From assembly GCF_963921235.1 (NCBI RefSeq), contig NC_086097.1, forward strand, positions 72,852,001 to 72,916,000: DNA of 64,000 bases. Reading direction: 5' to 3'. The position numbers and the translations under genes were made by a program. Within the stretch, counting starts at the first letter, position 1, and each line of letters begins with the position of its first letter. The notes below the pieces were generated by a model, which saw nothing but the letters and a program-made list of their open reading frames with translations, had not been told where the DNA came from and did not search any database. The DNA is from Mobula hypostoma (lineage: Eukaryota). This document shows, one piece after another, positions 20,796 through 60,907 of this stretch.

Positions 20796-20984
20796 GTTTC
20801 AGTTTGACGACTCGAGAATTGTAGAGTCATAGAACACAACAGCATAGGATGAGCTCCTTTGGCCATTCTAATCTGTGCTGATCTATTAATCTGCCTAGTC
20901 AAATAGACCTGCACCCGAACCATAGGCTTCCATATCCCTCTCATCCATGTATCTATCCAGATTTCTCTTAAATGTTGAAATGAC

Positions 20985-21633
20985 AATTTGCTGTCTCTGA
21001 GGGAGTTCAGTGACGCTGGGAGCAAAGTGTGCGGCCTGGAGACCTGGAGGCAGAATGCGAGCCCCTGATCGGCTCCATTGCTTCTCTCTGATTGAGGTGT
21101 TGAGCAAGACTGAAGTCCACGAGGGTGAGAGTGGAGGGCGGGTGAGTGCTCGGCACCATCTGCCTGCACCTGACCGGCCTTTCCTCTCTTCTCGATAGCT
21201 GCTGTTGGAGGAAAGTGCAGGAGTCTTGGGTTCCACATTGCAAGGATTGATTGGTGATGCTTGTGTCTGTGGACTCATTTTGGGGGACTTTGAGGTTCAT
21301 GTTGCATGTACTTCTGTTTTCTGGTGATTCTTCTTTTTTGCTGTTTTTGAGCAGTTTAATCGGGGCGCACCAGTGAAGACTGGACTTGCAGTCTGCAAGT
21401 GGTTAGCAGCGCAGCACTGAAGTAAATGGAATACTCCTGGACTCTTGGCTTGACGTTTGATATTCTATGTGCTCTTCACTTGCTTTTTGCGGTTTGCATG
21501 ATTTGTTCTTTTCCCAGGCATTGGGTGTTTGGTGTTTTGATTGAATGGGTTCCATGGCATTTCTGTACTTTGTGACTGCCTGCAGGAGGACAAATCTCAG
21601 AATTGTGTTCTGATATATGTACTTTGAATCTTT
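20985..21633 (+). mobile_element. non-autonomous LINE-tail element inserted in CR1 3' region
   Basis: Ends ...CAGGAGGACAAATCTCAGAATTGTG...TACTTTGAATCTTT; the flanking CR1 sequence (GTTGAAAT | CGACTCCGCATCCACC) rejoins across it. Confidence 0.55.
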
Positions 21634-23439
21634 AAAATCGACTCCGCATCCACCACTTACACTGACAACTTGTTCCACACTGTCACCATCCTCTGAGTGA
21701 CGAATCTCCCCTCTTGTTCCCCTTAAACATTTCACCTTTCACCCTTAACCCATGATCTCTAGTTGTATTCCCACCCAACCTCAATGGTAAAGGCCTGCTT
21801 GCATTTACTTTACGTATAGCCCTCACAATTTTGTAAAACTCTATCAAATCTCTTGTCAACTTTTGACATTCCAGGGAACAAAATAGTAATTTATTCAACT
21901 TTTCCCTTTAACTCAAGTTCTCAAGTCCCAATAAAATTCTTGTAAATTTTCTCCGTACTCTTTCAATCTTATTTCTGGTTTTCCTGTAGGTGGGTGAGAA
22001 AAACTGAACACAATGCTCCAAATTAGACCTTACCAATGTTGTATACAATTTCAAGATAATATCCCAACTCCTATATTCAATACATTGATTAACGAAGGCC
22101 AATATGTCAAAAGCTTTCTTTACAACCCTATCTACGTGTGACGCCACTTTCAATGAATTATGGATCTGTGTTCCCAGATTCCACTGTTCTACTGCACTCC
22201 TCAATGCCTATCACTCACTATGTAAAACCTACCCTGGTTGGTCCTCCTAAAGTGCATCACCTCACACTTGTCTGCATTAAATTCCATTGGCTATTTTTTA
22301 GCCCATCTTTTCAGCTGGTCCTGATCCTGCTGCAAGCTTTGATAGTATTCCTCACTGTCCACTACACCCCCAATCTTGGTGTCATCCATAAATTTGTTGA
22401 TCCAGTTTGTCATATTATTATCCAGATCATTAATATGGATGACAAACAGCAAGAGACGAGACCCAGCACCAATCCCTGAAGCATACCACTAGTCACAGTT
22501 CCGAGAGGCAACCATCTACAACTAATCTCTGGCTTCTTTTACGAAGCCAATGTTTAATCAAATTTACTACTTCATTTGAATGACAAACAATTGAGCATTC
22601 TTGGCCAATGGGACCTTGTCAAATCCCTTGATAAAATCCATGTAGACAACATTCACTGCCTTTCCTGGTAACTTACTTGAAAAATTCTACAAGATTGGTT
22701 AGACGTGATTTACCACGCAAAAAGCCATGTTGTCTGTTCCTAATCAGCCCCTGTCTATCTGATTACTTATATATCCGATCCCTTAGAATACCTTCCAATA
22801 ACTTTCCCACCACTGATGTCAGACTCACTAGTCTATTCATAGAACTATTCTAAAGCAGTGGAACAAAACTGGCTATCTACAATCCTCTGGCGCCTCACTC
22901 ATGGCTAACGATGTTTTAAATATCCCTGCTAGAGCCCCTGCATATTCCACACTAGCCTCCCACATTACCTGGCCCTGGGGATTTATCCACCCAAATTTGC
23001 CTCAAGACAGCAAACACCTCCTCTTCTGTAAACTGTTTAGTGTCCATGACCTCGTTGCTACATTGCCTCACATCTATAGGCTCTGATTCCATCTCTAGAG
23101 CAAAAAAATAATTTCAGATTTCCACCCACTTATTTCAGTTCCACACATAGATTACTACTCTGATATCCTAGAGATCCAATTTTGTTCCCTGCAATCTTTT
23201 TGCTCTTAGTTTTCAGTACCTGTAGAAGTCTTTAGGATTCTCCTTCACCTTGCCTGCTAGGGTAACGTCATGTCTTCTTCTAGCCCCCCTAATATTCTTC
23301 TTAAGTGCTCTCTTGCATTTCTTATTCTCCTCCAGTACCTGATTTATTCCTGCCTGCCTACTCCTGCTATGAACTTCCTCCTTTTTTTTAACCAGGGCCT
23401 CAATATCACTCAAAAACAAAGGTTCCCTAAACCTGTTGT

Positions 23440-23665: not shown

Positions 23666-23739
23666 GCCTTTTATTTTGACAGGAACATACAAATTTGCTA
23701 CTCTCAGAATTTCATCTTTAAAGTCCTTCCAGTTACCAA

Positions 23740-24576
23740 TGTTACGTACCCCGTAACTGGGTTGCCAAACCAGCAGAAATGGATCACTCAGTTGGAGTCT
23801 GGAGTACTAGAACTAAGAAAGTTTTATTAAAGAAACAAGCAACACAGTAATCGAAAGGATAATAAATGCAACAATTCAACAATGATAACCACACATGTGC
23901 ACAGAATTAAGATAACAGCATCAATCAAGCTCTATCGTTGTCTAGGGGTAAATGACCAATTTCAAAATGACTCAAAGTTCAGTTCGCAGTAATCGTTGCC
24001 ATGGCGATGGACAAGGTGGGGGAAGAGAGACAGAGAGAACAACTCATCATTCAGCACAGCTTCACTCACAGACCAGCGGGATGGCTCACAACCAGCTTTT
24101 GGGCAGGTCCTTGGTGATGTCACCTGAGGTCACCGACTGTGACCCCTCCTCCAGATGCGGTCGATCCTCTGCAGTGAACCCGGCACCCAGGCAAGGGCGG
24201 ACACACACCGGGTTCCCGCTGATCGTACATTTCCACCCTTGTCGTTGTCTGGGACTTCTCACCCACTCGTGAGAAGCGCACCGCTTCCAGGGTCTCGTTA
24301 CCTCGGGTGGCGTGTGTCTGTCTTAGCGAACCTGTCCCTTTTTATCCCCCTGCTGGGGTATCGCCTGTCCATCACTTCAAACAGTTCAGGGTTCAAAGGA
24401 GGGGAGCCGCTCCAGACAGCTCTTCCTCCCACATCCCTTCATTACACATCTCCAGACGCTGCTCCATTGTTCCTTATCTCTCCTTCCCCTGAGGGCAGGT
24501 GGCAGACCAACTGCTGATGCCACTGATGCTAGCCCAGGCCAGCAAACATCTTAATTTTATGTGTATTCTCGTAACA
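23740..24576 (-). repeat. 3' LTR
   Basis: Direct repeat of 27689-28525 (offset 3949), TG...CA ends. The only difference I found is 24229 A versus 28178 C. Confidence 0.95.
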
Positions 24577-24589
24577 CTTCCCCCCTTTA
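24577..24589 (-). promoter_or_regulatory. polypurine tract
   Basis: Minus strand reads AAAGGGGGGAAG immediately before the 3' LTR. Confidence 0.85.
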
Positions 24590-24748
24590 AGGATTTTTAC
24601 CGGGAGGTAAAAATTACAAACATGACTACATTATCTGATACATACACAATATACATCTTTAACAGTTATTTAGCTAATACGGAGAATTTGAAGCTGTCAA
24701 CACCTTGACAGACAGTCATCACATTTTCTGTTCCTTTTACACGTGTTA

Positions 24749-27589
24749 TTAATAATCCCTTAGACCAGGCTCCAACTCAGCAAACTTCATAGTGGCCAAA
24801 AACACTGATGAATTGCGACCAATGTAACCTCTCATTTGGTTTTGTCCCGGACCACAATAACAAGGGTCGTCCCATTCCGACTCAGTTTTCTCTCGCAAGG
24901 GCTTAGTAGGAGGGGGACGGGTATTGACCGCAGAGTTATTGCAAAACTTCCTGCAGTACCCCACCATCTCCAAAAGCCTTCTGAGGGCCCTCTTGTCTGT
25001 CGGGGTTGGGAGGTCAGCGATAGCCTGCACTGTAGCTTGCATCACTGCCAGCTGCCCCTGTGTCACCACAATTCCCAGGTAAGTGACATTCGTGTGGCCG
25101 AATTCATTTTTTCCAAGGTTCACTATCAAGCTGGCTTCAGACAGCCGTGTTAAATTGCCAATACACACCTCTGTGTTCATCAGCCCTTTAGTCACTGAAT
25201 TACTCAAAAAATATGGGTGTTGTTTACTTGGCCGCCCTATTGTAACCGACATAACCCAACGTCCCAGTTCTTTGCATTTCCTCGGGACAATCAAACACAT
25301 GGGTGCGAGTCGTTTAATTACTCCTTCGGGGATTAAGGGATAGACCTTATCAGTAGACCTGGCCAAAACAATAGCCTTCTCCCATCTGACCGATCCCATC
25401 CTAATCTTTTCAAAATGGTTTTTTCCTCTTATCAAGGGGCCCCTAGCTTCATTGATTTCCACGCTAACACCGACTAGGTTTGTTAGCATATCAAAAGCCG
25501 GTGACCGTCTCAGTTCGCGTCGGTCATGATCAATAACATTTTTCCCCCTGGGCAGCCGGTAACTCTCTTTCATGATTCCACCAACTGTTTCCTCCAGCAC
25601 CGCAAAATGTCCACCGGGGGGTACCTCGTGGGCCATGTTAAAAACCTCATCCCCATAACTCTTTTGCACCACCCCCCATTCCTCATCTGCGGGTACTGTA
25701 CTTGATTTCCCTTTCTTCTTTAGCACTTCCTCATCCGCACAATAGCTTGTCAAGGTTGTGTCAGAGAGAGCGGTCTCGGCAAAAACCATCAGCCCCTCGT
25801 CTCGCTCCTGCGTCTGCACAAATTCTTTCCTGGCTACTGCTACGTCCGTCCCAGCTCCCTCACTACCTCTTATCTCACTACACCCTGTCTCATACAAGGT
25901 TGGCAGAAATGTTTCAGCCAAATTCACCATCGCGGGCGGGGCCTCCATGCTGGCAGGCTGACCCGTCAATCTCACGACTGGGAACACGATTCCTCCGGCG
26001 ATGTCATTACCGAGCAAGACTTCCACGTCTTTCATCGGTAATTCGGACCTCACCCCAATCGTGACTAGTCCAGAGACCAGGTTGCTCTGTAAATGTATCT
26101 GGTGCAAAGGGACTGACTCTGTCCCTTCCCCAACACCTTTGACCTCTACCTCCCCAGTCTGGGTCTCTGAGCTAAACTCTAATACACTCTTCAGTATTAG
26201 TGACTGACACGCTCCCGTGTCTCTCCAGATCCGCACTGGAACTGGTTTTAACCTCTTTTTCACTGACACCAGTCCGGCCGAGATAAACCTCTCGCGCCCT
26301 TCCTGGACTTTTTCAGACCTGTCCTTCCCTAGCGGTTCGCTTAACAGCTCAATACAGCCATTCAAAATTTCCGCTTTTCCTTTCCCCGTCTCCTTCCTTG
26401 GGGCAAAGCACCTGGACGCAAAGTGTCCGACTTTCCCACAATTATAACAGACGACCCCAGGAGACTTCCTACCAGACTGCTCCCGGTCTACCTTATCCTT
26501 TTCACTAGTCCCCGGCTTACTTTCTGACTTTTCCGGTGGACTCCCCCCGCCGTCCTGACTACCCTTCTGGTAGCCTTTACTCGGGGCAAACTTCATTTTA
26601 TGCGTCAACGCATACTCATCCGCTAACTTAGCAGTTGCGGCTAACGTGGCTGCCTCTTTCTCATCGAGGTAGGGTCTCATACCCTCAGGGACACAACCTT
26701 TAAACTGCTCAATCAGAATCAGCTGCAGCAGTCTGTCATAATCCCCCTCTACCCCCTTCGAGGCGCACCAACGCTCACAACATGTTTGCATCTCGCGAGC
26801 AAACTCCAAATACGTGCGGTCCCACTGCTTCCTCACATTCCGGAACCTCTGCCGGTATGCCTCCGGGACCAACTCATAAATCCTGAGGATGGCCTCCTTC
26901 ACCACCTCATACTTCTGGGCATCTTCCGCGGATAAGGCGGAGTAAGCTTGTTGGGCCTTCCCTTTCAGTACACTCTGAAGTAAGACAACCCACTTATCCC
27001 TCGGCCATTCCTGACTTATAGCTACTTTTTCGAAGTGGAGAAAGTACCGATCCACATCGGTATCGTCAAATGGGGGAACCAGCCTAACCTCCTGGGTCGC
27101 CCGGAACCCTCCACCTTGGTTCGGCACGAGCCCCTGCTCGGCCCTTATCTTTAACTTCTCCAGCTCAAATTCCCTTTCCCTCTGTTTCTCCTCTCTCTCC
27201 AACTGTCTGTCCCTCTCTCTCTCTTCTCTCTCCAACTGTCTGTCCCTCTCCTGCCTTTCTAACTCTCTCTCTTTCTCCTGCCTTTCTAACTGCTTCTCTT
27301 CGTGTTCTAACTGCCGTACCCGGAACTCGTGCTCGAGTCTCAGTTTTTCAAGCTGTACCTGTACCGCGTCTCCAGCAGGTTTTTCAATAGACACCTCCCC
27401 CAGCTCACCTTGGGGAAACACACCTTTAGATACATAGTGCTCTACAATAGCTCTGTGTATCTCCTCTCTCCTCATTGTCGACTTCACCTTAGCAAGATTC
27501 ACCCGTTTTGCCACAGCTATCAATTCCGATTTCCTGGCATCCTCTAATGCCTCCAAGGTCGGCGCCTTTATAAATTCCTCAACCTCCAT
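24749..27589 (-). CDS. gag-pol: Gag-protease polyprotein with degenerate IN/RT/RNase H remnants (946 aa)
   Basis: E/R/Q coiled coil (aa 80-150); capsid/SCAN-like region VPPF..YFLHFEKVA..WP..ELVPEAYRQRFR (aa 170-330); CCHC knuckle CYNCGKVGHFASRC (381-394); protease RDTGA (456-460) and LLGNDIAG; IN Zn-finger remnant AHEVPPGGH (653-661); RT remnants QHPY, EVCIGNL in place of YxDD (809-812), NLGKNEFGHTNVTYLG, LRRLLEMVGYCRKF. Confidence 0.9.
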   Translation of the reverse strand: MEVEEFIKAPTLEALEDARKSELIAVAKRVNLAKVKSTMRREEIHRAIVEHYVSKGVFPQGELGEVSIEKPAGDAVQVQLEKLRLEHEFRVRQLEHEEKQLERQEKERELERQERDRQLEREERERDRQLEREEKQREREFELEKLKIRAEQGLVPNQGGGFRATQEVRLVPPFDDTDVDRYFLHFEKVAISQEWPRDKWVVLLQSVLKGKAQQAYSALSAEDAQKYEVVKEAILRIYELVPEAYRQRFRNVRKQWDRTYLEFAREMQTCCERWCASKGVEGDYDRLLQLILIEQFKGCVPEGMRPYLDEKEAATLAATAKLADEYALTHKMKFAPSKGYQKGSQDGGGSPPEKSESKPGTSEKDKVDREQSGRKSPGVVCYNCGKVGHFASRCFAPRKETGKGKAEILNGCIELLSEPLGKDRSEKVQEGRERFISAGLVSVKKRLKPVPVRIWRDTGACQSLILKSVLEFSSETQTGEVEVKGVGEGTESVPLHQIHLQSNLVSGLVTIGVRSELPMKDVEVLLGNDIAGGIVFPVVRLTGQPASMEAPPAMVNLAETFLPTLYETGCSEIRGSEGAGTDVAVARKEFVQTQERDEGLMVFAETALSDTTLTSYCADEEVLKKKGKSSTVPADEEWGVVQKSYGDEVFNMAHEVPPGGHFAVLEETVGGIMKESYRLPRGKNVIDHDRRELRRSPAFDMLTNLVGVSVEINEARGPLIRGKNHFEKIRMGSVRWEKAIVLARSTDKVYPLIPEGVIKRLAPMCLIVPRKCKELGRWVMSVTIGRPSKQHPYFLSNSVTKGLMNTEVCIGNLTRLSEASLIVNLGKNEFGHTNVTYLGIVVTQGQLAVMQATVQAIADLPTPTDKRALRRLLEMVGYCRKFCNNSAVNTRPPPTKPLREKTESEWDDPCYCGPGQNQMRGYIGRNSSVFLATMKFAELEPGLRDY

Positions 27590-27663
27590 TTCTGCTGTTT
27601 GTCTTTTCTTTCTTTCGGGAATTTTAACCCAATCAATTTACTCCGTCCCAAATTTAGCGTTCA

Positions 27664-27685
27664 AAATCGCGGACGAGAACCCCAC
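27664..27685 (-). promoter_or_regulatory. primer binding site, tRNA-Pro-like
   Basis: Minus strand TGGGGTTCTCGTCCGCGATTT, 4 nt inside the 5' LTR; resembles the tRNA-Pro PBS TGGGGGCTCGTCCGGGAT. Confidence 0.75.
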
Positions 27686-27688
27686 TTA

Positions 27689-28525
27689 TGTTACGTACCC
27701 CGTAACTGGGTTGCCAAACCAGCAGAAATGGATCACTCAGTTGGAGTCTGGAGTACTAGAACTAAGAAAGTTTTATTAAAGAAACAAGCAACACAGTAAT
27801 CGAAAGGATAATAAATGCAACAATTCAACAATGATAACCACACATGTGCACAGAATTAAGATAACAGCATCAATCAAGCTCTATCGTTGTCTAGGGGTAA
27901 ATGACCAATTTCAAAATGACTCAAAGTTCAGTTCGCAGTAATCGTTGCCATGGCGATGGACAAGGTGGGGGAAGAGAGACAGAGAGAACAACTCATCATT
28001 CAGCACAGCTTCACTCACAGACCAGCGGGATGGCTCACAACCAGCTTTTGGGCAGGTCCTTGGTGATGTCACCTGAGGTCACCGACTGTGACCCCTCCTC
28101 CAGATGCGGTCGATCCTCTGCAGTGAACCCGGCACCCAGGCAAGGGCGGACACACACCGGGTTCCCGCTGATCGTACCTTTCCACCCTTGTCGTTGTCTG
28201 GGACTTCTCACCCACTCGTGAGAAGCGCACCGCTTCCAGGGTCTCGTTACCTCGGGTGGCGTGTGTCTGTCTTAGCGAACCTGTCCCTTTTTATCCCCCT
28301 GCTGGGGTATCGCCTGTCCATCACTTCAAACAGTTCAGGGTTCAAAGGAGGGGAGCCGCTCCAGACAGCTCTTCCTCCCACATCCCTTCATTACACATCT
28401 CCAGACGCTGCTCCATTGTTCCTTATCTCTCCTTCCCCTGAGGGCAGGTGGCAGACCAACTGCTGATGCCACTGATGCTAGCCCAGGCCAGCAAACATCT
28501 TAATTTTATGTGTATTCTCGTAACA
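27689..28525 (-). repeat. 5' LTR
   Basis: Direct repeat of 23740-24576; adjacent to the PBS and followed on + by TSD CCAA. Confidence 0.95.
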
Positions 28526-30191
28526 CCAACTACATATTTGCCAGAAAACAGCCTGTCGCGATCCACACTTTCCAGATCCTTTCTGATACCATCAAAATTG
28601 GCCTTTCTCCTATTTAGAATCTCAGCCCGAGTACCAGACTATCCCTTTCCATAATTACCCTGAAACTAACAGCATTATTATCATTAGATACAAAGCATTA
28701 CCCTACACAATCTTCTGTCACCTGCCCTGGCTCATTCCCTAATAGGAGATCAAGTATTGCACTCTCTGTAGTTGGGACTTCTATGTACTAATTCAGGAAA
28801 CTTTCCTGAATATATTTGGCAGACTCTTTGCCATCCAGCCCATTTACAGTATGGGAGTCCCAGTCAATACGTGGAAAGTTAAAATCACCTACTATCACAA
28901 CATTATGTTTCTCGCAACAGTCTGCGAACTCTCTGCAAAATTGCTCCTCTAAGTCCTGCATACTGTTGTGTGATCTATTAAATAATCCCATTCATGTGGT
29001 CATACCATTCTTGATCCTCAGTTTTATCCATAAAGTCTCACTGGATGAGCTCTCCAGTCTGTCCTGACTGAGCTCTGTCATGATATTTTCCCTGACTAGT
29101 TTCCCTCCTCTTTTAATCCCTTCTGCTCTATCATGTCTAAAGAAAATGGAACTCGAAAATATTGAGCGCCAGTCCTGCCCGTCCTGTCTCACTAATGCCT
29201 ATGATGTCATAATTCCACATACTGATCCATGCCCTAAGCTTTTCCCCCTTTCCTACAATACTCCTTGCATTAAAATATACACAGCTCAGAACGTTAGTCC
29301 CATCATGCTCAACCTTTTGATTCCTGACTTTGTATGTAAGTTGGAAAATCTTTCTCCACAACCACTCCACTATCTGTTCTGGTGCTCTAGTTCCCATCCT
29401 CCTGAAACTCTAGTTTAAACCCCCTGCATGGTCCTAGCAAAGCTTTTCACTAGGATATTAGCACCCCCCCCACCCTCCATGTCAGATACAAACCATTCCT
29501 TCTGTACAGGTCCCACCTATCTTAGAAGAGAGCCCAATGATCCAACAATCTGAAGCCCTCGCTCCTGCCCCAACTCCTTAGCCTTATTTTAATCTACACA
29601 ATCTTCCTGTCTCTGGCCTCCTTAGTAAGTGGCATGGATAGCAATACTGAGATCTCAACTCTGGAGGTCCTGTCCTTTAACTTGGCACCTAACCCACTTT
29701 GCAGGATCTCGTCACCACACCTACCCATGTCATTGGTACCGATGTGGACCATGACCTCTGGCTGTTCACCTTCCACTTAAGAATGCTGTGTACATGATCC
29801 TCAATGTCCCTAGTTCTGGCACCCGGGAGGCAACAAACTATCAGGGGATCTCATTCTCATCCATACAGCCTCCTTTCTGTTCCCTTAACCAATGAATCCC
29901 CTGTCACTACAGCTCGCCTCTTCTCCCCACCCCTTCCCTTCTGAGCCACAGAGCCAGACTCAGTGCCTGAGACCTGACCAGTGTAAAAGAGGGTAAACAA
30001 GTTGCATAGAGTAGGAGGGATGAAGAAAGATGCCTGAGATACCAAGGAAACCAAGGTAGTTCAGATGATGTAATTTTCAGTTTTGCCCAGTCAATAGGGC
30101 AAATATAGGAGGGATGGGCAGGAGCTGGGAGATACAAAAGTTTGAACAACTTTTACATTCTGTATCTTGCAGTTACACTATATTTGAACTG

Positions 30192-42112: not shown

Positions 42113-43400
42113 TGTCACAAAGGTGGGGGTGTTGGGAGCAGACCCAAATGCAGACACTGAAGTACCAGGAACAGGACTAGGATGCAGGACCTGGGCTAGG
42201 ACATGGACAAGAAACAGGGAACCCAGACAAGGAAACATGAACTAAGAGCCTGGGCTTGGGAAAGCGGGACCAGGACTAGGAACCATGAACTAGGAGCCTG
42301 TGCTTGGAGTCCGAGCCAGAGACTGGACAAGGACCCAGAACCTGGGTCTTGTCTCAGGCTCGGACCCCAGAACCAGGCAAGGATATGACATGGCTACAGG
42401 ACAGGACAAGGCTGCAGGCTGGGGTCTTGAGGCTTGAGGCTGCAGCCTGGGAACTGCACATCAACCAGCAGGTTGCTCCCAGGGAATCTGATAAGACAAA
42501 CCATCCCACCACATTCAACCCCAAGGCTACTTATATTCCAAGTCCCAAGATGGGAATCAGGTGCCTATGATTAACCCAACCGAAACAAGGGACAGCTAGA
42601 AGATGAGTCCTTCGAAAATCCAGGACTCATCTTTCACACAACGCTAACATGAGACTGGACAGTACATAGACAGAGCTGGGACATATCCTTAGACAAGCCA
42701 GGACTCAACTTTATCTCCACACCAAGGTGGAACAGATCCATCCATCAGGTAACAGCAGAATAGCCAGACTTACCCAACAGAGGCAAAGACAAGACAAGAC
42801 AGGTCCCCCTGCAGGGTAACAGCAGAACAGCCTCACTTACCCCACAGAGGCAAGGACAAGACAAGCCAGATCCCCCCCACAGGGCAACAGCAGAATGGCC
42901 TGACTTACCCCACAGAGGCAAGGACAAGAAGATACAAACACTGAAGAATAGACAGTCCATCTCTGCATCAGGGTTGCTCCGAGTCACAGTTACAGCCAGC
43001 AACCTCAGCTGGCTACAGAAACAGCCGGATCCCTACCTAGCTCAGAGTGGCTGACAGCCACTCAGCTAGCCTGGGAAACAGCCAAATCCATACCACAAAG
43101 ACAGCTCCAACTACCAACAACAAGGCTCCATGAAGTGGTGGTTCTCCAACACAGTCTAAAGCTGGCAAGTGACCTCTCTAGCCTTCCACCAGCAGGTTGC
43201 TCCCAGGGAATCTGATAAGACAAACCATCCCACCACATTCAACCCCAAGGCTACTTATATTCCAAGTCCCAAGATGGGAATCAAGTGCCTATGATTAACC
43301 CAACTGAAACAAGGGACAGCTAGAAGACCCGGAGTCCTGAGTCCACGGACCGGACTGTGAACCGGAATGCGGACTTCACGGACCAGACCATGATAGTACC
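42113..43400 (-). mobile_element. LTR-like element with internal tandem and dispersed duplications
   Basis: Starts TGTCAC and ends CATGATA+GTACC (PPT-junction-like). A ~140-bp block is duplicated (42465-42604, 43187-43326); three ~65-bp units at 42745-42930; ~50-bp units at 42218-42315. Confidence 0.55.
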
Positions 43401-48570: not shown

Positions 48571-50599
48571 CTTGTGCATGTAAAGATTTGATGTCACAGG
48601 CTCAGCTTGTGTAAGAGTTTCTTTCCTACACTCTTGAGGGAAAATGAACAAAATATGCAATAAACACTCTGTGGCACTCATCACACAATGCAGATATAGT
48701 AGGAGGCTGTTTTCAAAGTATACTATTCATTGAATTCTCTTGTTTTTGTTCAAGGATCTTTGGAAGGTAAATCTAAGTGTTCTCTTCCAAAGAGGTAAAG
48801 GTCGTTCTGATAGATTGGCACGTTTTGAAGAACTGTTTCCCCCAAAGTGACAAGGTTGCTAATGAGTTCTTTATGTGCTAGTTTGGTCACTGAGCATATC
48901 ACAGTCATATCTGTGAGGAGAGTAAGATGCTGCCTTTAGAATTGGTAAAAAATAAAAACTGCTATGACCCAGCCATTCCTTGAAGATCACAATAAAACTT
49001 GTTTAGCGATATTAACCTTTAGTCACATTTACCATTGTCAAACTCTCAATAGTTTTATGAAGTATTTGAAAGGATTTAAATCCATTAGTTTATTTTTTTT
49101 CCTTGTGGCATCAAGCAGCATAGAATATTTATCCTATGCCATCAGCTGGAAGACAGACAGAAGATTATTATTGAATATAGACATGTAGAAGATTATAATT
49201 GAACACTGTGAGATTAGGTTAATCAACTTCTATTTTTTGGCAACTTGTTTACGTTTATTTTTATAACAAGCTTACTTGAAGTGTTAATCTAGAAATTGGT
49301 TTGCACTGCACATTTGCAGAAATGTATCTGCAGTAATGGTTCATTAGACAAATCTAATGACCACAGGAAATTCGTTCCATAAGATCATCAGTTCCCAACC
49401 ATTGTGTGGGGCACATGAGCTGTGTCTTGGGAGATAACGTGCAGATCCCTGAAGATAACAAAAGGTGGCTTGTTGAACCACTGGCACTAGGCCAACGGTA
49501 ATTCTGAAGTGAATGGGTGTGGCGGAATAAATATCAAGCAGATTGAGGAGAAACAATGCCTCTGACTCCAGGCAAATAAGAAAAAAAGTTCCATTTATCA
49601 CTCTGCCATCAGGTGGACCTTTATTGAAATGTTGCTGTTGGCCGTTACACCAGGGAAAATTAATCACAGTGCCACTTAGGGTTGTAGTCAACTGAAAACC
49701 AGTTTTGAATAGGGAAATGACTCAGACATTAGGTCACCAAACTATCAATGTGATGGTCTAATAGGCCTGATGCAAGTTTCAGATAGGTCCATTATCTAAT
49801 TGCTGTAAGTTTACTGAATATGGCCTACAATATCTATGCAGCCTGGATCTTTCTGGACCCGAAGTTTGTACCAAAGACCAATACCGCACAATCCAGTTTC
49901 TGCCCCATGGTTTGATTTGTACAATTACTTCAGGCAGATGCAGTACCAAGTAAAGATTTGGTGAAAAGTCAAAATAATGAACTTACTAGCCCCAGCTAAT
50001 TAAGTTTTGTAACTGAGGGGGCTTAAAGAAAAGACTTCAAATGTAATCGCTGTGATCCATCCAAGTAGAAAATGATTCCTTTCATCTGGATGATCAAAGT
50101 GATCCTAATTACTAGAAACATTCTCGTTTCATTGTATAAGTCTTTGAAGAGCTACTGATACTTCTTCCAGTGCACATGCAGAACATTCATGCTTCACTGC
50201 AGTGAAGATTTTATTATCCACAAGTGGCAGATTATCCCAAAGTCCTTTTTGAAGAGATCCTGACCATTTTTGGTATTAACATGAAAGAAATTATGACCTT
50301 GAAAAGCTTAGCTTCCTAGATAATTCTTGGGTTTAATCAGGAGAATCTCACAATTCAAATGCTACTTTACATTCTGAATTTATTGATTTGACTGACTGGT
50401 GAAATTTAATCAACAGCAACGATCACTTGATCCAAAAGGTACGTTGCTTGATGAAATAATTCTCTATATTCAGACTATGATTTATCCAAGTTGAGGTATT
50501 CCACAAGAAAAGCTTATGGTTTAAAAATGTCTGTCTGATACCACTGACTGTGAGGTTAATAGGCCCAAGCACAATTTATGAGATAACTCTAATATCAGG

Positions 50600-51330
50600 T
50601 TTTTCCTAATGCTGAATCAATTCTAATAGCCAACAAGTGATGATATCAAGATTATTAAAGAAATAGCATTCTCCTGTAGCTATATTCTCTTATTCAGATC
50701 AGCCTTTTCACATTAAAGCCAAGACATTAATGAGTAGGCTTCAAAAAACTATTAATAGAACAAGGCTGATGATTAAGCTAATGTGATTACATCCCCAAAA
50801 GAAGAATTGAAATGGTAATAGTAGAGGTTCTTAAATATTAAATGATATAAAATAAAAAACTGAGAAAATACATAAATGTGATAAAACTAAAATACAAAAT
50901 TAAGAATTTACAATTATGTAATTATTTAGTGTTGGGCATGTGACCAAGTGGTTAAGGCGTTCGTCTAGTGATTTGAAGGTCACTAGTTCGAGCCTCAACT
51001 GTGGCAGCGTGTTTGTGTCCTTGAGCAAGGCACTTAATCACACATTGCTCTAGTCTGTGCGAGGAGTGATGCCCCACACAGACTTCCAATCTGCACCTTG
51101 TAAGGCATGAAAATGCCCGACGCAGGCCTCTCATGGTCTGCGTCGACGCTCCCCCCTAAGGTTACCAAGGGAAAGCTTCTAGGGGAGAATTTGCGAGGCT
51201 TGTCTTTACTACCAAATTATGACCAGTTGTACATTAATGTTAGGTAGTCATGGCTCATGGTGGTAGTCTAGGTAGATGACATCTTAATTGTTAATCATGT
51301 GATTTAGAGTACAAGATAACTATACGAGAT
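50600..51330 (+). pseudogene. possible very old integrase core + RT remnant
   Basis: PVAIFSYSDQ (50673-50702), in-frame LHPQ (50787) and VV*VDDILIV (51263-51292); weak. Confidence 0.3.
50934..51157 (+). mobile_element. tRNA-derived SINE
   Basis: A box TGACCAAGTGG, B box GTTCGAGCC, then the TGTGTCCTTGAGCAAGGCACTTAA core typical of fish SINEs. Confidence 0.8.
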
Positions 51331-53179
51331 TAAAAACTAATGAATGAATGTTTCTATTAGGTAGCTTCAAAGAATATGTGTTTATGGAAACATTTTGTGA
51401 TAGAAAGGATCCCAAGTCTCCATACTTGCATTCCTTAGCTGCAGCATATTTGAGAAAGACCAGAAGTGTAATCAAAGAGGCAGGCTCTGAAATGTAGGAG
51501 GGAACATGTAAGATGAAAGGGTTTTGAAGGAGAGAATTCTGAAGAGTATAACTATGACACCTAATGGCAGAATGGAAACAGCAGTGGACTCACAGAGAAA
51601 AATCAAACTGGGACATGAGATTACAGAAGGAAGTGGAGTAAGCCCAGCAGCAAGAGGATTTACAAATAGTGATTGTGAAAATTAACGTTGCGAAGATGGA
51701 GGGCAGCCATTTCCGAAATACAGAGCAAAACATCGCAGCAATTTATCAGACAATATTTGACTCTGGAACTACTGGGAGGCTAATAGGGTTGCTGTCTAAA
51801 AGTTTAGTGAAACAGATAAGGTATCAGAAAGAAAGAAGTAGAGAGGTAGAATTTATTCCATTTTTCAGTAAGTTCTCAATGTGGTAACATAAGTGCATGG
51901 AATTCTGCTTCTGAAGTGAACGGAACCAAATTTCATGTACAATGGTCAACAGATTTCTATCCTGTGGAGGTTAGTGTAATGAACACCCAAGTATGCATGG
52001 CTATGACCAGAGGTAAAACAATTAAATTCAAGTCTGATTAGTGTGTTCAGAATCAGTGAAGTACAGATATCCCAGAGAGATCCAGGTCCAGAGAGATGGC
52101 ATTCTCTTAATAATTGTAAGTTAACTTCCAGCTATATTCATTATTTAGTTTCTGGTCATAAATGGGACCCGGTCTTCAGTACTTAATGTAAGTGGAAAGC
52201 AGTAGTCAATTTAAAGTTGAAAAACACAGTTTTGCAAGCAAGCACTGTATATCGCTTAGGATCTTGGCCACAGCACCTGTCTTATTGCCGAAGAGGTGCA
52301 GTATAAGACAAGGATTTTTTGATTTGACTTGTTTCAAGTACAACAATGTTGGCTAAGTTGTTCAATTCAAGGAAGCTTGCACACAAGATGGAGACAATCA
52401 CTTAGTACATCAAAAACTGATCTATTAATAAGATGGAAAGTTTACAAAATCAGCGAAGTTAGCTTCACAATATTAATTGTGGGTACTTGGGATCTCTGTC
52501 TACAAGAAGCTTTTAGACCACTTTTGTTAAAATGTATCTGAAAGAATATCACGTGTGTGAGAAGTCCTCCAAATGGCAAAGAAACTGTATAAATGTAGAG
52601 AACGGTTCAGGCTTATTAGAAATGGGGTAAGAAACATCAAGAAGCATGGAAGAAACACAGGACGAACAAGAATCCATTCCTCTGCCTTCAATATTTGTGA
52701 CAGACATCATTTGCATCATAGGTATGTCTTTTTAGACAACAGGAATTGTATCCATGTTTTGGAAATCCTTTGTGTTTTAAAAATGGTTTGTAATTCGCAA
52801 ATCTTTAATAAGATAGAAATCATCGTAGTTTTAAATGTGTTTTAAGAATGTTGTTTGGAATTAGAAGTACATCACTGTAAATAAATGAACTGTATTTTAA
52901 ATTATTTTGTTAGCAGGTAGTATCTTATTGGTGGGGGGGGGGGCTCACCAGTCAAATATTGGGTATTGGCATTGAAACTCACCATGGAGAATAAACAGGG
53001 AAGTGGCCCAATCTTTGAAGATTGGGTCATTACAGTATAACCTTCCTTTAATGAGGGTACTCAAGACTATTTATATCTGATAAGGCTTAAGGTCTTCAAT
53101 AGAGTTTAGAACTTCACTGTCAACAATTCCAATACCATCACTGAATAAACTCTAGACTATCATCGAGACAAAATGATCA

Positions 53180-55430
53180 GAACAAAATTGAAACATATTT
53201 GTGCAAATATTATGACCATATACATCAATATCCTAATCACTGTGGGATGGTTGATATTGAATCAACTAAATTAGGATGCAATCTTTTCCCACGCCAGAAA
53301 GAGTGGCATATTACTGACTATAAGGAAAACAATCCCCAGAAAACTGCAGATTCCCTCTATAAACAAGATATTTTTGATAAAAGAACATTCCTGATTTAAC
53401 TTGCCCATGTTTGGTGCAGCAAACCCTGATGGACAATGGTGATTGGTCATCGACTACATCATCCTAAATAAAAACACAGAACTTGTCGTGGCCCAGAAAC
53501 AGGTATTATAGCAAATAGACTTATAAAAACTTTACATGGATCTAGCTAATGGTTTCTGGTCACCCTCACTTTTTGAAAGTGACAGACATTACACAGCCTA
53601 AAGCACCCAATAGCTTACAATGTCAGTGGACCAGATTCCCACAAGGTTTTTTAGAATACTGCACCAATATTTTTTGCAGGAGTCTTTCAAACTCTACAAG
53701 GAATTCCAAAAGTTTGTGTGTATGTTGATGATGAACACACAGATTCACTGGACACAGATTGAAACTGACATTAAAAGATCGACAGACAGAAGCTATGTAA
53801 TTAACATTAAAGATCTCAACCCTGTCATACAAAAGTACATTTCCTAGTTTTGACAATTACTAATCAGGGACCGTGATTTAACCCCTGAATTTAGACAAAA
53901 GTCTCTCAAGTGGGATATCCAATAACCATAAAAGCCTTGCACTCAACCCTAGGCCTATTGAACAACGCCAGAGCTTTCATACCTGACTATGCTCAATTCT
54001 CAAAATCATTATACATTAGATGTTCACCGAAGAATGAAAGCTCCTTTGTTTTTACCGCAGGAGATTATGAGGCACTAGAGAAATTGATGATTGCAGTTCA
54101 GCAAGGAATAGAGCTCTGGACAAAAGACCTAACAAAACTTTTTCTTCTGCAAATTCATGTTGCTCAAAATTTGCAGTGGCCTTCTGCTATAATGAGAGAG
54201 AAGAAACACAAGCTCCCATGCACTCTGCCTCATAGCATAGTTTCACCCCAACAGAACAGAAATGTATTGCCTTACAATGATATCTTACTATGGTTATTCT
54301 ATACACTTGTAGTAAGGTCACTGCAAGAGAATAAACCAATTATTATACAAACAGAAACTGTGACTTTGAAAAATGATAGCAAATTAGCTACCATAACTCG
54401 ATATGGGAAATGGGAAATACTTTTACAAGACAAAACATTAAAATGGGAATACATTCCTGAGAACTATGACTTACAATAGTTACCTGTTATGGAGAGTGCA
54501 GAACCATCTTCTCCAAGACCCAATGTAACATGACATCCTTTAGAGCACTATTCTCAAATATGCTACTGGCATGGATCAGCAATCAGAATATAACTATAAT
54601 CCCTGCTCTTGATTGTAAAAGGGCATTTTTTTATTTATCAGAAACAGAATTTGAATAACGTGAGTTGCAAGCACATCCTTTAGGACAGGGGTTCCAATCC
54701 TAGGGTCCATGGAACCCTTGGTTAATAATATGGCTCCATTGCATAATAAAAGTTGGGAACGCTTGCTTTAGGGAATCGTGCAGCTCAGTTTGCAGAGGGA
54801 GGCTAAAGCCCTTGAATTATGTCTAAGACTATAGAACCATACTTGACTGACTCGGATTATGTTAGGAATGCTGTAAAAATCAGATCTCTCATCTGATCAG
54901 CTACTGGATGAGAACACACCGAGGTAAAGTGCTACCACATTTGTCCATATGAAAGAATATTTTATGAACTACTATTGACTCGACCATTAGCATGGGTGTT
55001 ACATGTCCCAGGACATACTGCAGGTCTCCTATTCATCTGTGGTAATAAGCCAGTAAAACAAGCTGTCAGAATGGACTTTACTCCAATAAGAGAGGCCAGG
55101 ATTTTGGAATGAACTCAGTAATAAGGAAAAAAAACAATCAGGATAATGTTTTAGCAATTCTCCGAAACAATACTGAACCCAATCTCAAAGCATTTCCAAC
55201 ACTGTACAAATAAGAAGCTGATGGTGAAGGTAAGGTTTGGGTTTGCAGCTCCAAGAAGGATAAAAAGCAAGTACAAGTAGAAAGCATTGATTCAAGAAGC
55301 CTAACAAGGACTTGGATCGAATCATGATGGTAGACAAGCTACTGATGCGAAATTAGCCATGTTATACTGGTGGCCTAACATGTTGAGTGATTCTAAGCAA
55401 TTTATTGCAATTAGTAAAGATTGTTAGCCT
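53180..55430 (+). pseudogene. pol: endogenous foamy-like retrovirus pol (RT-tether-RNase H-IN N-terminus), decayed
   Basis: In order: HQYPNHCG..RQKEWHI..DSLYKQ (53199-53399); PMFGAANPDGQW*LVIDY (53404); DLANGFWS (53539); WTRFPQGF (53627); GIPKVCVYVDD (YVDD 53721-53732); LHSTLGLLNNARAFIPDYA; RYGKWEILLQD; HPLEHYSQICYWHGSAIR (~54534-54587); PLG|NRAAQFAE; LTDSDYV; HVPGH..GN; HDGRQATDAKLAMLYWWPNM (55323-55382). Confidence 0.88.
54686..54765. mobile_element. 80-bp hAT MITE inserted in the foamy-like RNase H
   Basis: CAGGGGTTCC...GGGAACGCTTG with TSD CTTTAGGA (54678-54685) / CTTTAGGG (54766-54773); removing it restores HPLGNRAAQFAE. Confidence 0.85.
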
Positions 55431-55439
55431 TGAAGATTG

Positions 55440-57533
55440 TTGAAGATGCTGGAGAGGTGGTGATGGGGGAACAAAGAAATGGTGGATGAACTGAATAAAT
55501 ATTTTGCATCAGTTTTCACTGTGGAAGACACTAGCAGTATACTGGAATTTCAAGAATGTCAGGAGGCAGAGGTGTGTGGAGTTGCCATTACTAGGGAGAA
55601 GCTTCTTGGGAAACTGAAAGATCCGAAGGTAGATAAGTCATCTGGACCAGATGGTGTACACACCAGTGTTCTGAAAGGGGTGGCTTAAGAGATTTTGGAG
55701 GTATTAGCAGTGATCTTTGAAGAATCTCTAGATTCTGAAATGCTTCTGGAGGACTGGAAAATTGCAAATACCACTCCACTCTTCAAAACGGAAGAGAGAC
55801 AGAAGAAAGGAAATAATACGCCAGTTAGTCTGACTCAGTGGTTGGGAAGATGTTGGAATTAAATGTTAAAGAAGTGGTTTTGGGGTACTTGGAGAAACAT
55901 AGTAGTCAGGCTGGTTTTCTGAAGAGAAAATCTTGTCTGACAAATCTATTAGAATTCTTTGAAGAAATAATAAGCAGGATCGACAAAGGCAAATCGCGAT
56001 GGATGTTGTGTACTTGGATTTTCAGAAGGCCTTTGGCAAGGTACCACACATGAGGCTGCTTAACAAGTTAAGAGCCCATGACATTATAGGAAAGATACTA
56101 GCATGGATAAAGCATGGACTGCTTCTTTTTACTTTATATGTCAATGACTTGGACAATGGAATTGATGGCCTTGTGGCCAAATTTGTGAATGATACAAATA
56201 TAGGTGGAGGGGCAAGTAGTTTTGAAGAAGTTGAGAAGCTACAGTAGAACTTAAACAGATTAGAAGAATGAGCAAAGAAGTAGCAGATGGAATATAGTGT
56301 CGAGAAGTGTATGGTCATGCACTTTGGTAGAAGAAATAAAAGCAGAGTTTTTTCTAAATGGAGCGAAAATTCAAAAATCTGAGCTGCAAAGGGACTTGGG
56401 AGCCTTTGTGCAGGATTCCCTAAAGGTTATTTTGCAAGTTGAATCTGTGGTGATAAAGACTAATTCAATGTTAGCATTCATTTCGAGATGACTAGAATTT
56501 AAAAGCATAGATGTAATGTTGAGGCTTAAAAAGCACTGGTGAGGCCTCACTTTGAATAATGAGAGCAGTTTTGGCCCCCTTATCTCAGAAACAAAAATAA
56601 TCCTGGGATTGAAAGGCTTGTCATATGAAGAGCATTTGATGGCTCTGGGCCTCTACTCACTTAAATTCAGGAGAATGAGAAGTGACCTCATTGAATGTTG
56701 AAATGCCTCGATACAGTGGATGTGGAGAGGATATTTCCTGTGGTGGGTGAGTCTAAAGCCTGATTTATACTTGTGCGTACGGGCTACGTTGTAGGCCTGA
56801 TTTATACTTCTGCGTAGCCCTACGCTGTAGTGAGCATGCGTTGTTGTGTCTGCGTCGCTCTGCAATTCACCGCCAAAACATTAGTAGGCGGTGGGGTTTC
56901 TATGCCACTGTGTTGAGTTTCTTCATGAAAGACATGGACGAGGAAATGCACTTCAAATATTTTCGGATGTCAGCGGGTAGATTTGACGATTTGGTTCATC
57001 ATCTCCAACCATTTATTTCGCATCAGTGTACAGACATGGCGGAGAAAAGCAACCGGAAATGCAATGCTACCAAGCGGACCAATCACAGTTGTTACGGTCT
57101 GCGTCACCGCGACACGTGAGTTACTTTTTTGGGGAGGTGCACATCACCCTACGGCATAGGGTGCGGCACAGGGTACGCAGTACCCATGGCGTACATTTGA
57201 CGCAGAAGTATAAATCAGGCTTAAGACCAGAGAACACAGCCTCAGAATAGAGGGGTGTCCATTTAGAAGAGATGAGGAGGGATTTCTTTAGCCAGAGAGT
57301 GGTGAATCTGTCCAATTCATTGCCACAGGTGGCCATGTAAGTCAAATCATTGGGTATACTTAAGGCGGAGGTTGACGGATTCTTGATTAGTCATGGCATG
57401 AAGCAGTATGGGGAGAAGGCAAGAGTTTGGGGGTGAGAGGAAAAATGGGTTATCCATGATGAAATGGTGCAGCATACTCAATGCGCCAAATGGCCTAATT
57501 CAGCTGCTATATCTTAAGGTCTTAGGGTCTTAT
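55440..57533 (+). mobile_element. 5'-truncated CR1 LINE inserted in the foamy-like provirus
   Basis: ELNKYFASVFTVED, SSGPDGVHTSVLK, YLDFQKAFGKVPH, FVNDTNIGG; tail TCTTAAGGTCTTAGGGTCTTAT. Same subfamily as 8281-12895. Confidence 0.9.
56757..57221 (+). mobile_element. non-autonomous PIF/Harbinger element with transposase fragment
   Basis: TIRs AGCCTGATTTATACTT / AAGTATAAATCAGGCT; TAA TSD (56754-56756, 57222-57224); internal peptide MDEEMHFKYFRMSAGRFDDLVHHLQPFISHQCT like the Harbinger transposase N-terminus. Confidence 0.85.
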
Positions 57534-57539
57534 AAAATG

Positions 57540-58680
57540 AAACTGTTTTCATCCCTGGTCAACTGATAAGTCCAATAAGCATTTTAGAGATTTTAGTCCC
57601 GTAGAGTATTGTATCTAACCAGGTTTCCTACTTGTCCCTAACCAAACAGTCATGAATAGATTGTGCTGTAGTGCAAATAATACCTGACCACAAAAATTCA
57701 TTCAGAATTATTGGTGTCCTTACGAATTCAATTTTATTTCAGACAGACTTTGAATACAAGTTGAAAAATGGGGAAACAAGCCTATGATAAATGTTACTGT
57801 TGGAGACCTGTTGATAATGCTGAATTTTGAGGTTGCACTGATAACATTACTCCACAAATAGGCAATGTTACATACACAGACAAACCTTCAATTAAGGCTG
57901 AGTAGCTCAGTCAGATAGTATTATCATCAGCAGGCAAAAAAAAAAAGCAATTTGGCCCTTAACAATTTTCATGACATTAAAAAAAATATATTAGAGTAAA
58001 ACTGCCTGTAAAGCCACGCCTTAACAGTGTTCACTCACATAATAACATTGATGTGATCTTTCATTTCACTCCGAAGGTAGAAATTTCTGCTGACAGGAGT
58101 TGTTCATTCATACTGTAATCAGAGGTTTTTATCACTTTTTAAGGTTTATAGAGGAAGTGACTCTTGGAGTAATCTGATTAGTTAATCTGTGTTGCGAATC
58201 TCAAGGCACGATCCAGGTTTAAGGAACGATTTATGATGGATGCAACAAGGAATATTCTAGAAGGGCTTGGTATTTGTCCACAAAGCTGAGTCAAATCAAA
58301 ATAATATTTCTCTGTATAGTATGACAGTAACTGAACTGATACAATCAGACAAGCGAGTCACCTCCTTTTACAAGTTTCCCTGCAGACTCAGACTAAACCC
58401 TTGACTGGCTTAACGCTAGAGGTGAAACAATCGCTAAGACCTTTCCAGCTGTTGCAAATTTAGCTTCTGCAGCAGCAAATATAGTTTCTTGTAACACACA
58501 GATGTAGCTGAACATGACTACATGGTAACTCTTTGCATGTAGTTTCAAAGGGAATCCTCAAATATTTCCTTTTAGGACTACTACAGCTGAAACCCACAGT
58601 CGCAGCCATGGGTAAGCAATGTTGTTTTAAGATGCTTAATTTATAAAGTCAGTGATATTAATTTACATTCAAATCCACTA
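57540..58680 (+). pseudogene. env: foamy-like env remnant (internally deleted; mainly TM subunit)
   Basis: Collinear peptides LSQI (57906), NNFHDI (57961), LSTKLSQIKI (~58275), RQASHLLLQVSL (~58348), TLDWLNARGETIAKTFPAVANLASAAANIVS (58397-58489), SKGILKYFLLGLLQLKPTVAAMG (58545-58613), LIYKV (~58636). Confidence 0.65.
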
Positions 58681-58737
58681 ATGGAGCCCAACTCATGGAC
58701 CACACACATATTTCGGTACTATGCATAATAACGTCTG

Positions 58738-59112
58738 AACACAACAGAGAATCTGGAACTCAGCATTTGTCAAGCAGCACTGATGGCAGGAAAGGAATCG
58801 CAGATATTTTGAGTCAAAACTCTGTATAAGAACTGAGAATGGAGAGAGAAGATAGTCAATATAAAGAGGAGAAGGGGAGTGGTGAGGTGATAGGTGGATT
58901 GGCACCATCTGTATACCTCTTGAGACCTGACCCAACAGTCCCTTTCTCTGCTTTATACTGGCCATCTCCCTTCTCCACTTTCAGTCCTAATGGAGGGTTT
59001 TGACCTGAAGCATTGTCAATTCCTTTCCTCCCACAGATGATGCTCAACCTAGTGAGTTGGTCACATTTGGTTGTTGCTCCAATTCCAGTGTCTGAAATCT
59101 CTTGTGTCTCCA
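58738..59112. mobile_element. inverted pair of Penelope-type terminal repeats
   Basis: Left arm (GGAACTCAGC...GGAAAGGAAT...GAGAGAAGATAGTCAATATAAAG) is approximately the reverse complement of the right arm (CTTTATACTGGCCATCTCCC...ATTCCTTTCC...GTGAGTT). Confidence 0.6.
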
Positions 59113-59354
59113 AAGCCTATGTACATGTATTTAACACATCAGTTTAAAGTTCCAATATTATTGTAAGTGGTGCTCTGTTCATAACCTGGACTTTGCAGTC
59201 ATACTCAAGTTTTGCCATTGTTACTCAAAGAAACCAACAATTGTTTAGAATTTTCACACATATGGTTCAACATACCATATCAGGATAGACTGTTCACAAT
59301 TGTCTATAATTAAAAATAAAATAAAATCACTTTATGGCATCAATCTAGGTTTCT

Positions 59355-59572
59355 CACAACAAACTGTCTGCTGGAGGTATTCAGTGACTCGAGCAGCTTC
59401 AGTTGGAGGGAAAGGAATTGTTAAATGTTCCTTTTAAAACACTGCATCAGGACAAGATGCAGTTTTTCAATTAGTAACCTCAATAATACTTCCCCTTGCT
59501 GCTGAATTTGTTGAGTTTGTCCACCAGATTGCTTGTTGCTCTAGACTCCGGCACCTGCAATTTCTTGCATCT
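59355..59572. mobile_element. second inverted Penelope-type terminal repeat pair
   Basis: ACAACAAACTGTCTGCTGGAGG...GCAGC versus GCTGC...GTCCACCAGATTGCTTGTTG, followed by a CCGGCACCTGCA tail. Confidence 0.5.
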
Positions 59573-60199
59573 CTAGGTTTCTAGAACCCATTACAAAATA
59601 TTCTATTAGACTTATACTGATGTCTCTATGAGCTATTAACAATGTACTCCACCCAAAATATGACTCAGCACACCATCTAAAACACTCTGGTTATCTACCC
59701 TATTTATGCCATTCATGATTTTATATACCTCTGCCAGGTGTTGCCTGGCCTTTGATGTTCCAGAGAATACAATCCTAGTTTATCCAACCACCTTGTAGCT
59801 AATACTTTCTAATCCCTGCCATGCAGATTGCCAAAACTTTGTTAATTTTTTTCAGTCTTTGGTGAGTACGGTGACTATGATAATCACAAATGTCAGGCCA
59901 ATATGAGCTTCTATAAATTATCTAATAGCTGTATGAGTTAATACAAGGCAAACATTATATTTGAATTTGTGGGCCATAAATGTAAAAGATAATCTGGCAC
60001 CTGCTAATGATTGAGTTTGTCCTTGCTCTTTCAATGTTGGTAGCATTTTTTGCTCTAACTTTCTGAAAGTGCGGACTGCTATTCTAATACGGAAGCAGGA
60101 TTTCCAGGATTGGCCTAATCTGAATAAGACTGAATTATCTCCAACCAATCAGATGACAAGTAAAGAGTAAGAGAGAGGGTAAGTGCTATGAATTAATTC

Positions 60200-60907
60200 A
60201 TTATACATCAGTATATAAAAGGGAGATTGAAAATCTGGTTGAATGCTGTTATACATTTCAAATGGGTTTCTGTCCATGTTGGGATTGAAGGAAATGAGGT
60301 GGCAAATATACTTGACAGCAATCATTTAAAATTAAGGATATAAATGTAGCGGTGCCTTTGCACAAAGGGGAGATGAAGTCCATAATTAAGAAATATATTC
60401 ATTGACTGTGGCAACAAAGTTGGGATCAGGAAAAGAAAGAATGGCATTAATATAAAACTCAGAGGATGGTCGGAACTCAACTGGGTGATGGGAATAAAAA
60501 GAGGGAAGTAGTTATACTAACGTGTTTACATATTGGACATACTCGGTTGAACAATTCCTTGTTCAGAATTAATATGCATGATACGGGCATTTGTAGGGAG
60601 TGCACTTGTCAAGAAATGGTGCAGCATATACTGTTTGAATGCATATCCTTTGAGGTGCAAAGGAGACATTAATTGCTAAATTGAGAGCTTTGGGACAGAC
60701 ACAGTTTAAAATGGAAAGTTTGTTAGGATATCACTGTCATCATAATGTATACAACTCTGAAAAGCTTTAGACTTTGAGGTTTTTTGAAGAGGGGAACTTA
60801 GTGGGGAAAGTTCCTCTCTTTGCTCCATGCTGCAACTTAGCAGGTGGCAGTAATGCACCTTATGTGGGTTTGCCAACCACCATTAAACTTAATTAGAAGA
60901 AAAAAAT
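60200..60907 (+). mobile_element. I/Nimb-clade LINE 3' fragment (RNase H end + CCHC)
   Basis: FKWVSVHVGIEGNEVA, WQQSWD, TCLHIGHTRLNNSLF..GICRECTCQEMVQHILFEC; 3' end GGTGGCAGTAATGCACC...AGAAGAAAAAAA. Confidence 0.8.

Follow-up and report, generated by a model that had tools for sequence, protein, structure and literature searches.

The analysed stretch of 64 kb, here called the window, holds the remains of a retroviral element in which a degraded foamy-type pol (53008..55424, + strand) is followed by a 5′-truncated LINE (55440..57531, + strand), by a region that very probably represents a dead, broken and partly deleted foamy-virus env remnant (about 57556–58696, + strand) and, just after it, by a palindromic interspersed repeat (58773..59044). 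The pol remnant retains part of the protease, the reverse transcriptase (RT), the connection/tether, RNase H and the integrase N-terminal zinc-binding domain; it was colinear with positions 53–861 of a foamy Pol profile (264 bits), the integrase core being absent. Its best PDB match was foamy Pr125Pol (E 6.8e-13; next non-foamy chain, E 0.84), and Pfam recognized Integrase_H2C2 (E 1.8e-05). Its decay shows in 12 stops across 682 aligned codons and in 18 places where the frame breaks or jumps. The RT scored 122–138 bits with 14 foamy RTs, 81 bits with a sequence (L044) that we take to be, probably, snakehead retrovirus and at most 44 bits with others. It grouped with foamy viruses, on a long branch, with support of 100/100 (10 foamy rows) in a tree that used 23 of 41 rows, near-duplicates and a long Gypsy row being left out, and that held no loki, ERV-L or fish foamy rows; a quick tree of all 42 rows gave an SH-aLRT of 87 for the foamy grouping. 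Word-based searches with pol pieces, and a search of viral contigs with the pol open reading frame, found no match. The foamy gag profile scored at chance on 51300–53100 and 49500–51300 (35 and 51 of 100), and gag is either lost or too diverged. Tas and Bel2 profiles were likewise at chance on 58650–60500 (34 and 29 of 100), no accessory gene or 3′ LTR was recognized beyond the palindromic repeat, repeat searches of the window found no LTR pair for the element, and the window had no Rfam match; the element seems to be cut off after env.

The env region was mapped against a profile built from the Envs of 16 mammalian foamy genomes, their env being confirmed as PF03408, using a frameshift-aware aligner of our own that chains strict local pieces in order (jump cost 10 as the main setting; several settings were tried). 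A preliminary description had assigned 57900–58680 to the transmembrane subunit (TM) of a foamy-type Env. By our alignment the remnant is larger, starting ~350 bases further upstream with pieces of the surface subunit (SU), and these are its strongest signal. The first, a putative piece of the receptor-binding domain (57556..57657, + strand, profile 363–396), is an ungapped run of 34 codons with one stop; it scored 28.3 bits, the best among ~128,000 places in the six frames of the window, and hhalign gave E 1.9e-05 for the piece alone. Five of the nine columns within it that are invariant in 12 foamy Envs are identical, including the sequon Asn, and its N-x-T sequon stands at the invariant Asn column (PFV 391), where foamy Envs carry the conserved N8 glycosylation site. 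A further SU piece (57765–57845, + strand, profile 425–450) shows the conserved Cys/Trp spacing in the chain alignment, where the 434–450 part scored 7.7 bits, a level reached at 36 places in the window; the chain also places a weak piece of profile 498–512 within 57765..57892 (+ strand).

Further along the chain, 57931..57984 (+ strand, profile 564–581; 12.6 bits, best in the window) corresponds to the SU/TM cleavage region and the start of the fusion peptide, with a basic stretch at the place expected for the furin site and no intact R-x-x-R left. A TM heptad-repeat A piece follows (58036..58053, + strand, profile 614–619; 16.7 bits, best in the window; hhalign E 0.022). At 58054..58067 (+ strand) the diagonal, defined as window start minus three times profile position, changes from 56194 to 55680, which points to a deletion junction of ~170 codons (profile about 620–795); profile 626–795 scored at or below the shuffle mean, the central TM being missing. 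Beyond the junction, a TM ectodomain piece (58068..58115, + strand, profile 796–811; 11.1 bits, reached at 3 window places) shares its diagonal band with the C-terminal pieces, 58068–58544 forming one 19-base band of diagonals (profile 796–954). Within it lie the candidate heptad-repeat B and membrane-proximal helices (58274..58501, + strand, profile 871–944, three frames), which contain the third to fifth of the seven peptides listed in the preliminary description. The last two peptides fall in the putative membrane anchor and short tail remnant (58518..58696, + strand, profile 946–983), whose pieces scored 6.0–10.1 bits each and are of uncertain register, ~50 bases off that band. With the long leader peptide, which in foamy Env bears a second membrane anchor and a Gag-binding motif, missing at the LINE, the remnant by this map keeps traces of each Env part except the leader.

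As one chain, 57532–58700 scored 60.0 bits against the 16-Env profile. Shuffled sequences averaged 37.5–37.8 ± 5, and none of 1,000 (0/300 and 0/700) reached the score; nor did any of 104 tiles taken elsewhere in the window, while the reverse strand gave 38.8 bits and the reversed profile 39.2 bits. The result was robust to jump costs of 8 and 12 (0/300 shuffles at each). Gumbel estimates put p at 0.0006–0.006, which is not overwhelming, and the p-values of the env tests are somewhat generous because several settings were tried. Tested separately, 57532–57900 against the SU profile and 58260–58700 against the TM end (profile 861–987) were each equalled by 0/500 shuffles, and 57900–58680 against the TM profile by 5/500. 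When matches were confined to a narrow band at jump cost 10, the scores were reached by 0/500 shuffles for SU, 4/500 for cleavage region and heptad A, 7/500 for the TM end and 405/500 for the TM middle; the TM C-terminus fell to 26/500 at jump cost 12, and cheap jumps were not discriminating (23, 6 and 150 of 150). Strict single local alignment of the region was matched by 1/250 shuffles. Foamy Gag, Pol and integrase profiles on the same DNA were at chance level (44, 13 and 41 of 100 shuffles). Plain hmmsearch and tblastn of foamy Env against the window reached best E values of 0.043 and 0.032, and the best Env match of the plain profile search in all six frames of the 64 kb (E 0.043) lay at 57550–57654, directly behind the LINE end. 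An Env alignment search brought back 32 proteins, each a foamy Env of mammalian type (47–100% identity), with no distant relative among them.

All seven peptides of the preliminary description are present in its span, on the + strand, in the order given and in three frames (57906, 57961, 58274, 58347, 58397, 58545 and 58636), and the reference motifs that it gave really occur in prototype foamy virus Env (L016, P0001). Its pairings of the two fared unequally. The five C-terminal ones are in register with the profile (diagonals 55661, 55665 and 55667, then 55716 and 55720); among them is the 31-residue ungapped match, which none of ~128,000 six-frame places surpasses for its profile stretch (16.6 bits), weak as it is alone (hhalign E 0.064). 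LSQI and NNFHDI, on diagonals 56127 and 56098 (7.9 and 9.2 bits), were probably mis-paired, because the 16.7-bit match at heptad A must precede the motif assigned to 57961; the NNFHDI stretch (57931–57984) appears to be a better match to the SU/TM cleavage site and the beginning of the fusion peptide. A rival map, which we consider very unlikely, has an env of the same retrovirus but takes the earlier pairings as right: the noted span would open with the start of TM, heptad repeat A would hold both LSQI and NNFHDI, and chance would explain the SU matches upstream. Those two pairings do lie on nearby diagonals, and a permissive alignment threads 57575–58650 through TM 626–976 without large gaps; however, this threading was dropped after shuffle controls, since such settings were not significant on the env region (40 and 19 of 250 shuffles). 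The map also conflicts with the matches at 58036 and 57931, and it would leave to chance the SU part, where the signal is strongest and the PF03408 match lies. The claim of a foamy-type Env remnant after pol is supported as to foamy env, but not as to TM only, and the middle of TM is absent; and its place, downstream of pol on the same strand, is as described except that a 2.1-kb LINE intervenes.

Could the region instead be an unrelated medium-copy repeat or host DNA beside the LINE, no env at all, whose peptides in three frames look like Env by coincidence? Every blind whole-frame search was empty, as this would predict: no open frame of at least 100 residues overlaps 57900–58680, 12 and 15 whole-frame readings matched no env family in Pfam, PF03408 included, whole env frames had 0 matches among 1.84 billion representatives, and a PDB sequence search with env readings gave nothing relevant (top matches NPR4, glycine cleavage H and canavalin, all E > 0.1). 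Base composition, too, does not set the region apart from its flanks, and short motifs drawn from three frames match easily. The profile search proposed in the preliminary description passed only marginally: PF03408 was the sole Pfam family matched by the 57556–57657 piece, at best with 12.1 bits (E 0.041) against a gathering score of 27 bits, on one 40-residue piece that was chosen after the fact and lies outside the span then noted, and phmmer with the 57556–57657 piece recovered none of the PDB's five foamy Env sequences. A score below threshold is what one expects once a gene has been broken into short pieces; it lowers the formal family claim. Chance would, however, have to account for the chain score, three separate region scores and the PF03408 match of the SU piece; the region is moreover repeated at pol's level, with a sharp fall of depth in the flanks, and upstream, separated from it by nothing but the 2.1-kb LINE, a foamy pol runs on the same strand. 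We therefore regard a non-env origin as highly improbable.

Equally improbable, in our view, is an env from a related non-foamy lineage, a lokiretrovirus or a teleost-type foamy-like virus, whose likeness would reflect a shared fusion core only. The RT tree lacks loki and fish rows and shows the window RT as a long branch, and the part of the lokiretrovirus report available to us groups foamy and loki RNase H together (PMC7947760). Against this, the best match falls in the receptor-binding domain, for which the available text on foamy Env structure gives foamy viruses a distinct fold (PMC9988990), no fusion-protein Pfam match (PF00523) was found with single frames or pieces, and the five host classes given for lokiretroviruses, in the portion of the source consulted, omit cartilaginous fish (PMC7947760). 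The excerpted account of teleost foamy-like env detects no similarity to foamy Env in it (PMC5210030). A foamy-virus env remnant remains the preferred reading.

The LINE between pol and env, on the + strand with an RVT_1 domain, probably inserted after the provirus; we presume it to be CR1/L2-like. It is 72–76% identical to another copy at 10795–12895, and its summed depth of 1e5–1e6 comes with loose ends at 57524. Where it sits, the element lacks its integrase core and the 5′ third of env. Two contigs of organism E (X11; 89% and 84% identity) cease to match at 55430 and 57561 and continue into different sequence, behaving as copies without this LINE would; no contig in the four runs joins pol to env across it. 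Nested in the LINE is a small high-copy element (56751..57227) with 28-nt terminal inverted repeats (93%), whose empty sites, joints that skip ~470 bases, were seen in 4/4 runs. The palindromic repeat after env, an inverted repeat with 112-nt arms (71% complementary), coincides with a rise in depth, and a related fragment lies near 59404–59453.

DNA contigs of four runs, from four organisms other than the window's own, were matched at 80% likeness. Summed depth in X8 rose from 55–62 in the 5′ flank to 603–1688 in pol bins and 1056–1906 in env bins, a pattern repeated in X9 and X11, and the differing X8 contigs at listed places numbered 11–38 over env and 2–16 over pol. Clearly, env is repeated at about pol's level, as expected for one family, summed depth not being a copy number. 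Contigs of single-copy depth match the element and its flanks at ~98% (organism B) and 93–95% (C and E). In B and in E one contig crosses the env end into the next repeat, none spanning the whole locus, so the locus appears common to the window's species and three others, and a shared locus gives a minimum age of the insertion. At ~58060, contigs of both B and C continue with no added sequence, so the gap in TM is probably older than their split. From the stop density and the contig identities we infer an insertion several times older than the A–C/E split, probably tens of millions of years old or more, which is a rough figure. No RNA run was listed as containing the stretch, a result that is neutral as to expression.

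Other repeats share the window. Summed depth in X8 at 52500–53100 was 16,000–22,000, ten times that of pol, in a stretch that overlaps the start of the protease region and has no second copy in the window; it may be an LTR or leader that numerous non-autonomous derivatives have in common, or an independent repeat at the place expected of gag. A very high-copy short repeat at 50940–51150 (depth near 1e6 in X8) reads like what we assume to be a tRNA-derived SINE. On the − strand, 23739–28526 is a young LTR element: two 839-bp repeats (99.9% identical) flank a 962-residue open frame that has SCAN and zinc-knuckle domains, a protease-like part and a truncated RT part, without a full pol. It resembles a SCAN-bearing Gypsy with an internal deletion, presumably Gmr1-like. 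A cluster of short tandem and direct repeats at 42168–43327, with a 143-nt pair (98% identical, 724 apart), is possibly a small young LTR-like or non-autonomous element. The window also carries many LINE fragments of one or two families, 63–83% identical to each other, and the only open frames of at least 170 residues in 1–45000 are three LINE-like frames and one Gypsy frame.

This copy is inactive, as its stops, frame breaks and two large losses show. We propose that an exogenous foamy (spuma) retrovirus integrated into an ancestral ray germ line and gave rise to a multicopy endogenous family; that the LINE came later, ~2 kb of provirus (the integrase core and the env 5′ third) having gone at that place; that a second deletion would have removed the TM middle before species A, B and C split; and that the copy has probably decayed neutrally since and makes no protein. 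The preliminary description saw support for an infectious foamy-type virus, which we find for the ancestor, as an enveloped virus, only. In the available text of two structural reports, the foamy Env trimer is cleaved into leader, SU and TM, its receptor-binding domain engages the cell, and heptads A and B of its TM form a six-helix bundle that fuses membranes, with a core related to paramyxovirus F (PMC11468914, PMC9988990); one of them, as far as consulted, describes the receptor-binding domain as its own fold and N8 as the only strictly conserved SU glycan, which holds that domain folded (PMC9988990). By analogy, the ancestor's Env quite likely worked like the known foamy Env. As in the solved foamy structures, furin-like proteases would have cut the trimer of the living virus into leader peptide, SU and TM, the SU receptor-binding domain, held folded by the N8 glycan, would have bound the cell, and the TM heptad regions would have refolded into a six-helix bundle, fusing the membranes.

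No marker of old retroviruses decays faster than Env, which has so far mostly escaped detection in fish; an env with mammalian-type landmarks in a ray indicates an element derived from an enveloped true foamy virus. The record of the receptor-binding domain would then reach deep into vertebrate history; what is known would be unchanged in kind, this copy being without function. More tentatively, and with the balance of probability against it, the ray foamy virus may already have had a tetrapod-type receptor-binding domain with the structural N8 glycan, a similarity that the teleost foamy-like viruses lack. If so, the domain would date to the jawed-vertebrate common ancestor, unless a jump between host classes brought it in. 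The dozens of copies, whose fixation would predate the divergence of several ray species, would then offer the oldest form of this F-protein-like entry machine for comparative study. Our literature search, which took in the likeliest source, a 2023 paper by Wang, Chen and Cui (J Virol), by title only, found no paper on an elasmobranch foamy receptor-binding domain.

The paper by Wang, Chen and Cui reportedly describes an endogenous foamy virus of cartilaginous fish, covering sharks and rays. Likened by title only, its elements are endogenous foamy viruses of sharks or rays, as here, and very possibly belong to one lineage with ours. Mammalian foamy Env (PF03408; PFV, SFV, FFV, BFV and EFV; PDB 8OZH, 8RM0, 8RM1 and 8AEZ) presents the same succession as the remnant, in which the SU piece carrying the N8 sequon comes first and a basic stretch in the cleavage region, heptads A and B and a putative anchor come after it; about 365 codons here stand for about 620. 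The mammalian pol order of protease, RT, RNase H and integrase is that of the window element. Unlike mammalian foamy viruses, the element has a broken env, no intact cleavage site and no detected gag, tas, bel2 or LTR, and its RT is very distant from theirs, at about 33–37% identity. The teleost foamy-like elements DrFV, AciFLERV and PpERV carry a foamy-like pol and then an env-like gene in which, according to the excerpt available, neither BLAST nor HMMER detects similarity to foamy Env (PMC5210030), whereas the window env is similar to it, weakly. Lokiretroviruses are alike in their retrovirus-like pol and an Env with a class I fusion core, but in the part of the source consulted that Env is F-like (PF00523), a family unmatched here, and cartilaginous fish are not among the hosts listed (PMC7947760). 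Within cartilaginous fish, partial accounts describe CmiFLERV of the elephant shark as foamy-like with only pol detected (PMC5512871) and ERV-Spuma.0-Sca of a catshark as a foamy-like pol that groups with ray-finned fish elements (PMC10699275). Both, so far as those accounts go, share a foamy-like pol with the ray element, which differs from them in having env pieces that resemble mammalian foamy Env. The ray element is best placed as a further member of the already known endogenous foamy viruses of cartilaginous fish, and possibly as a copy of an already named lineage.
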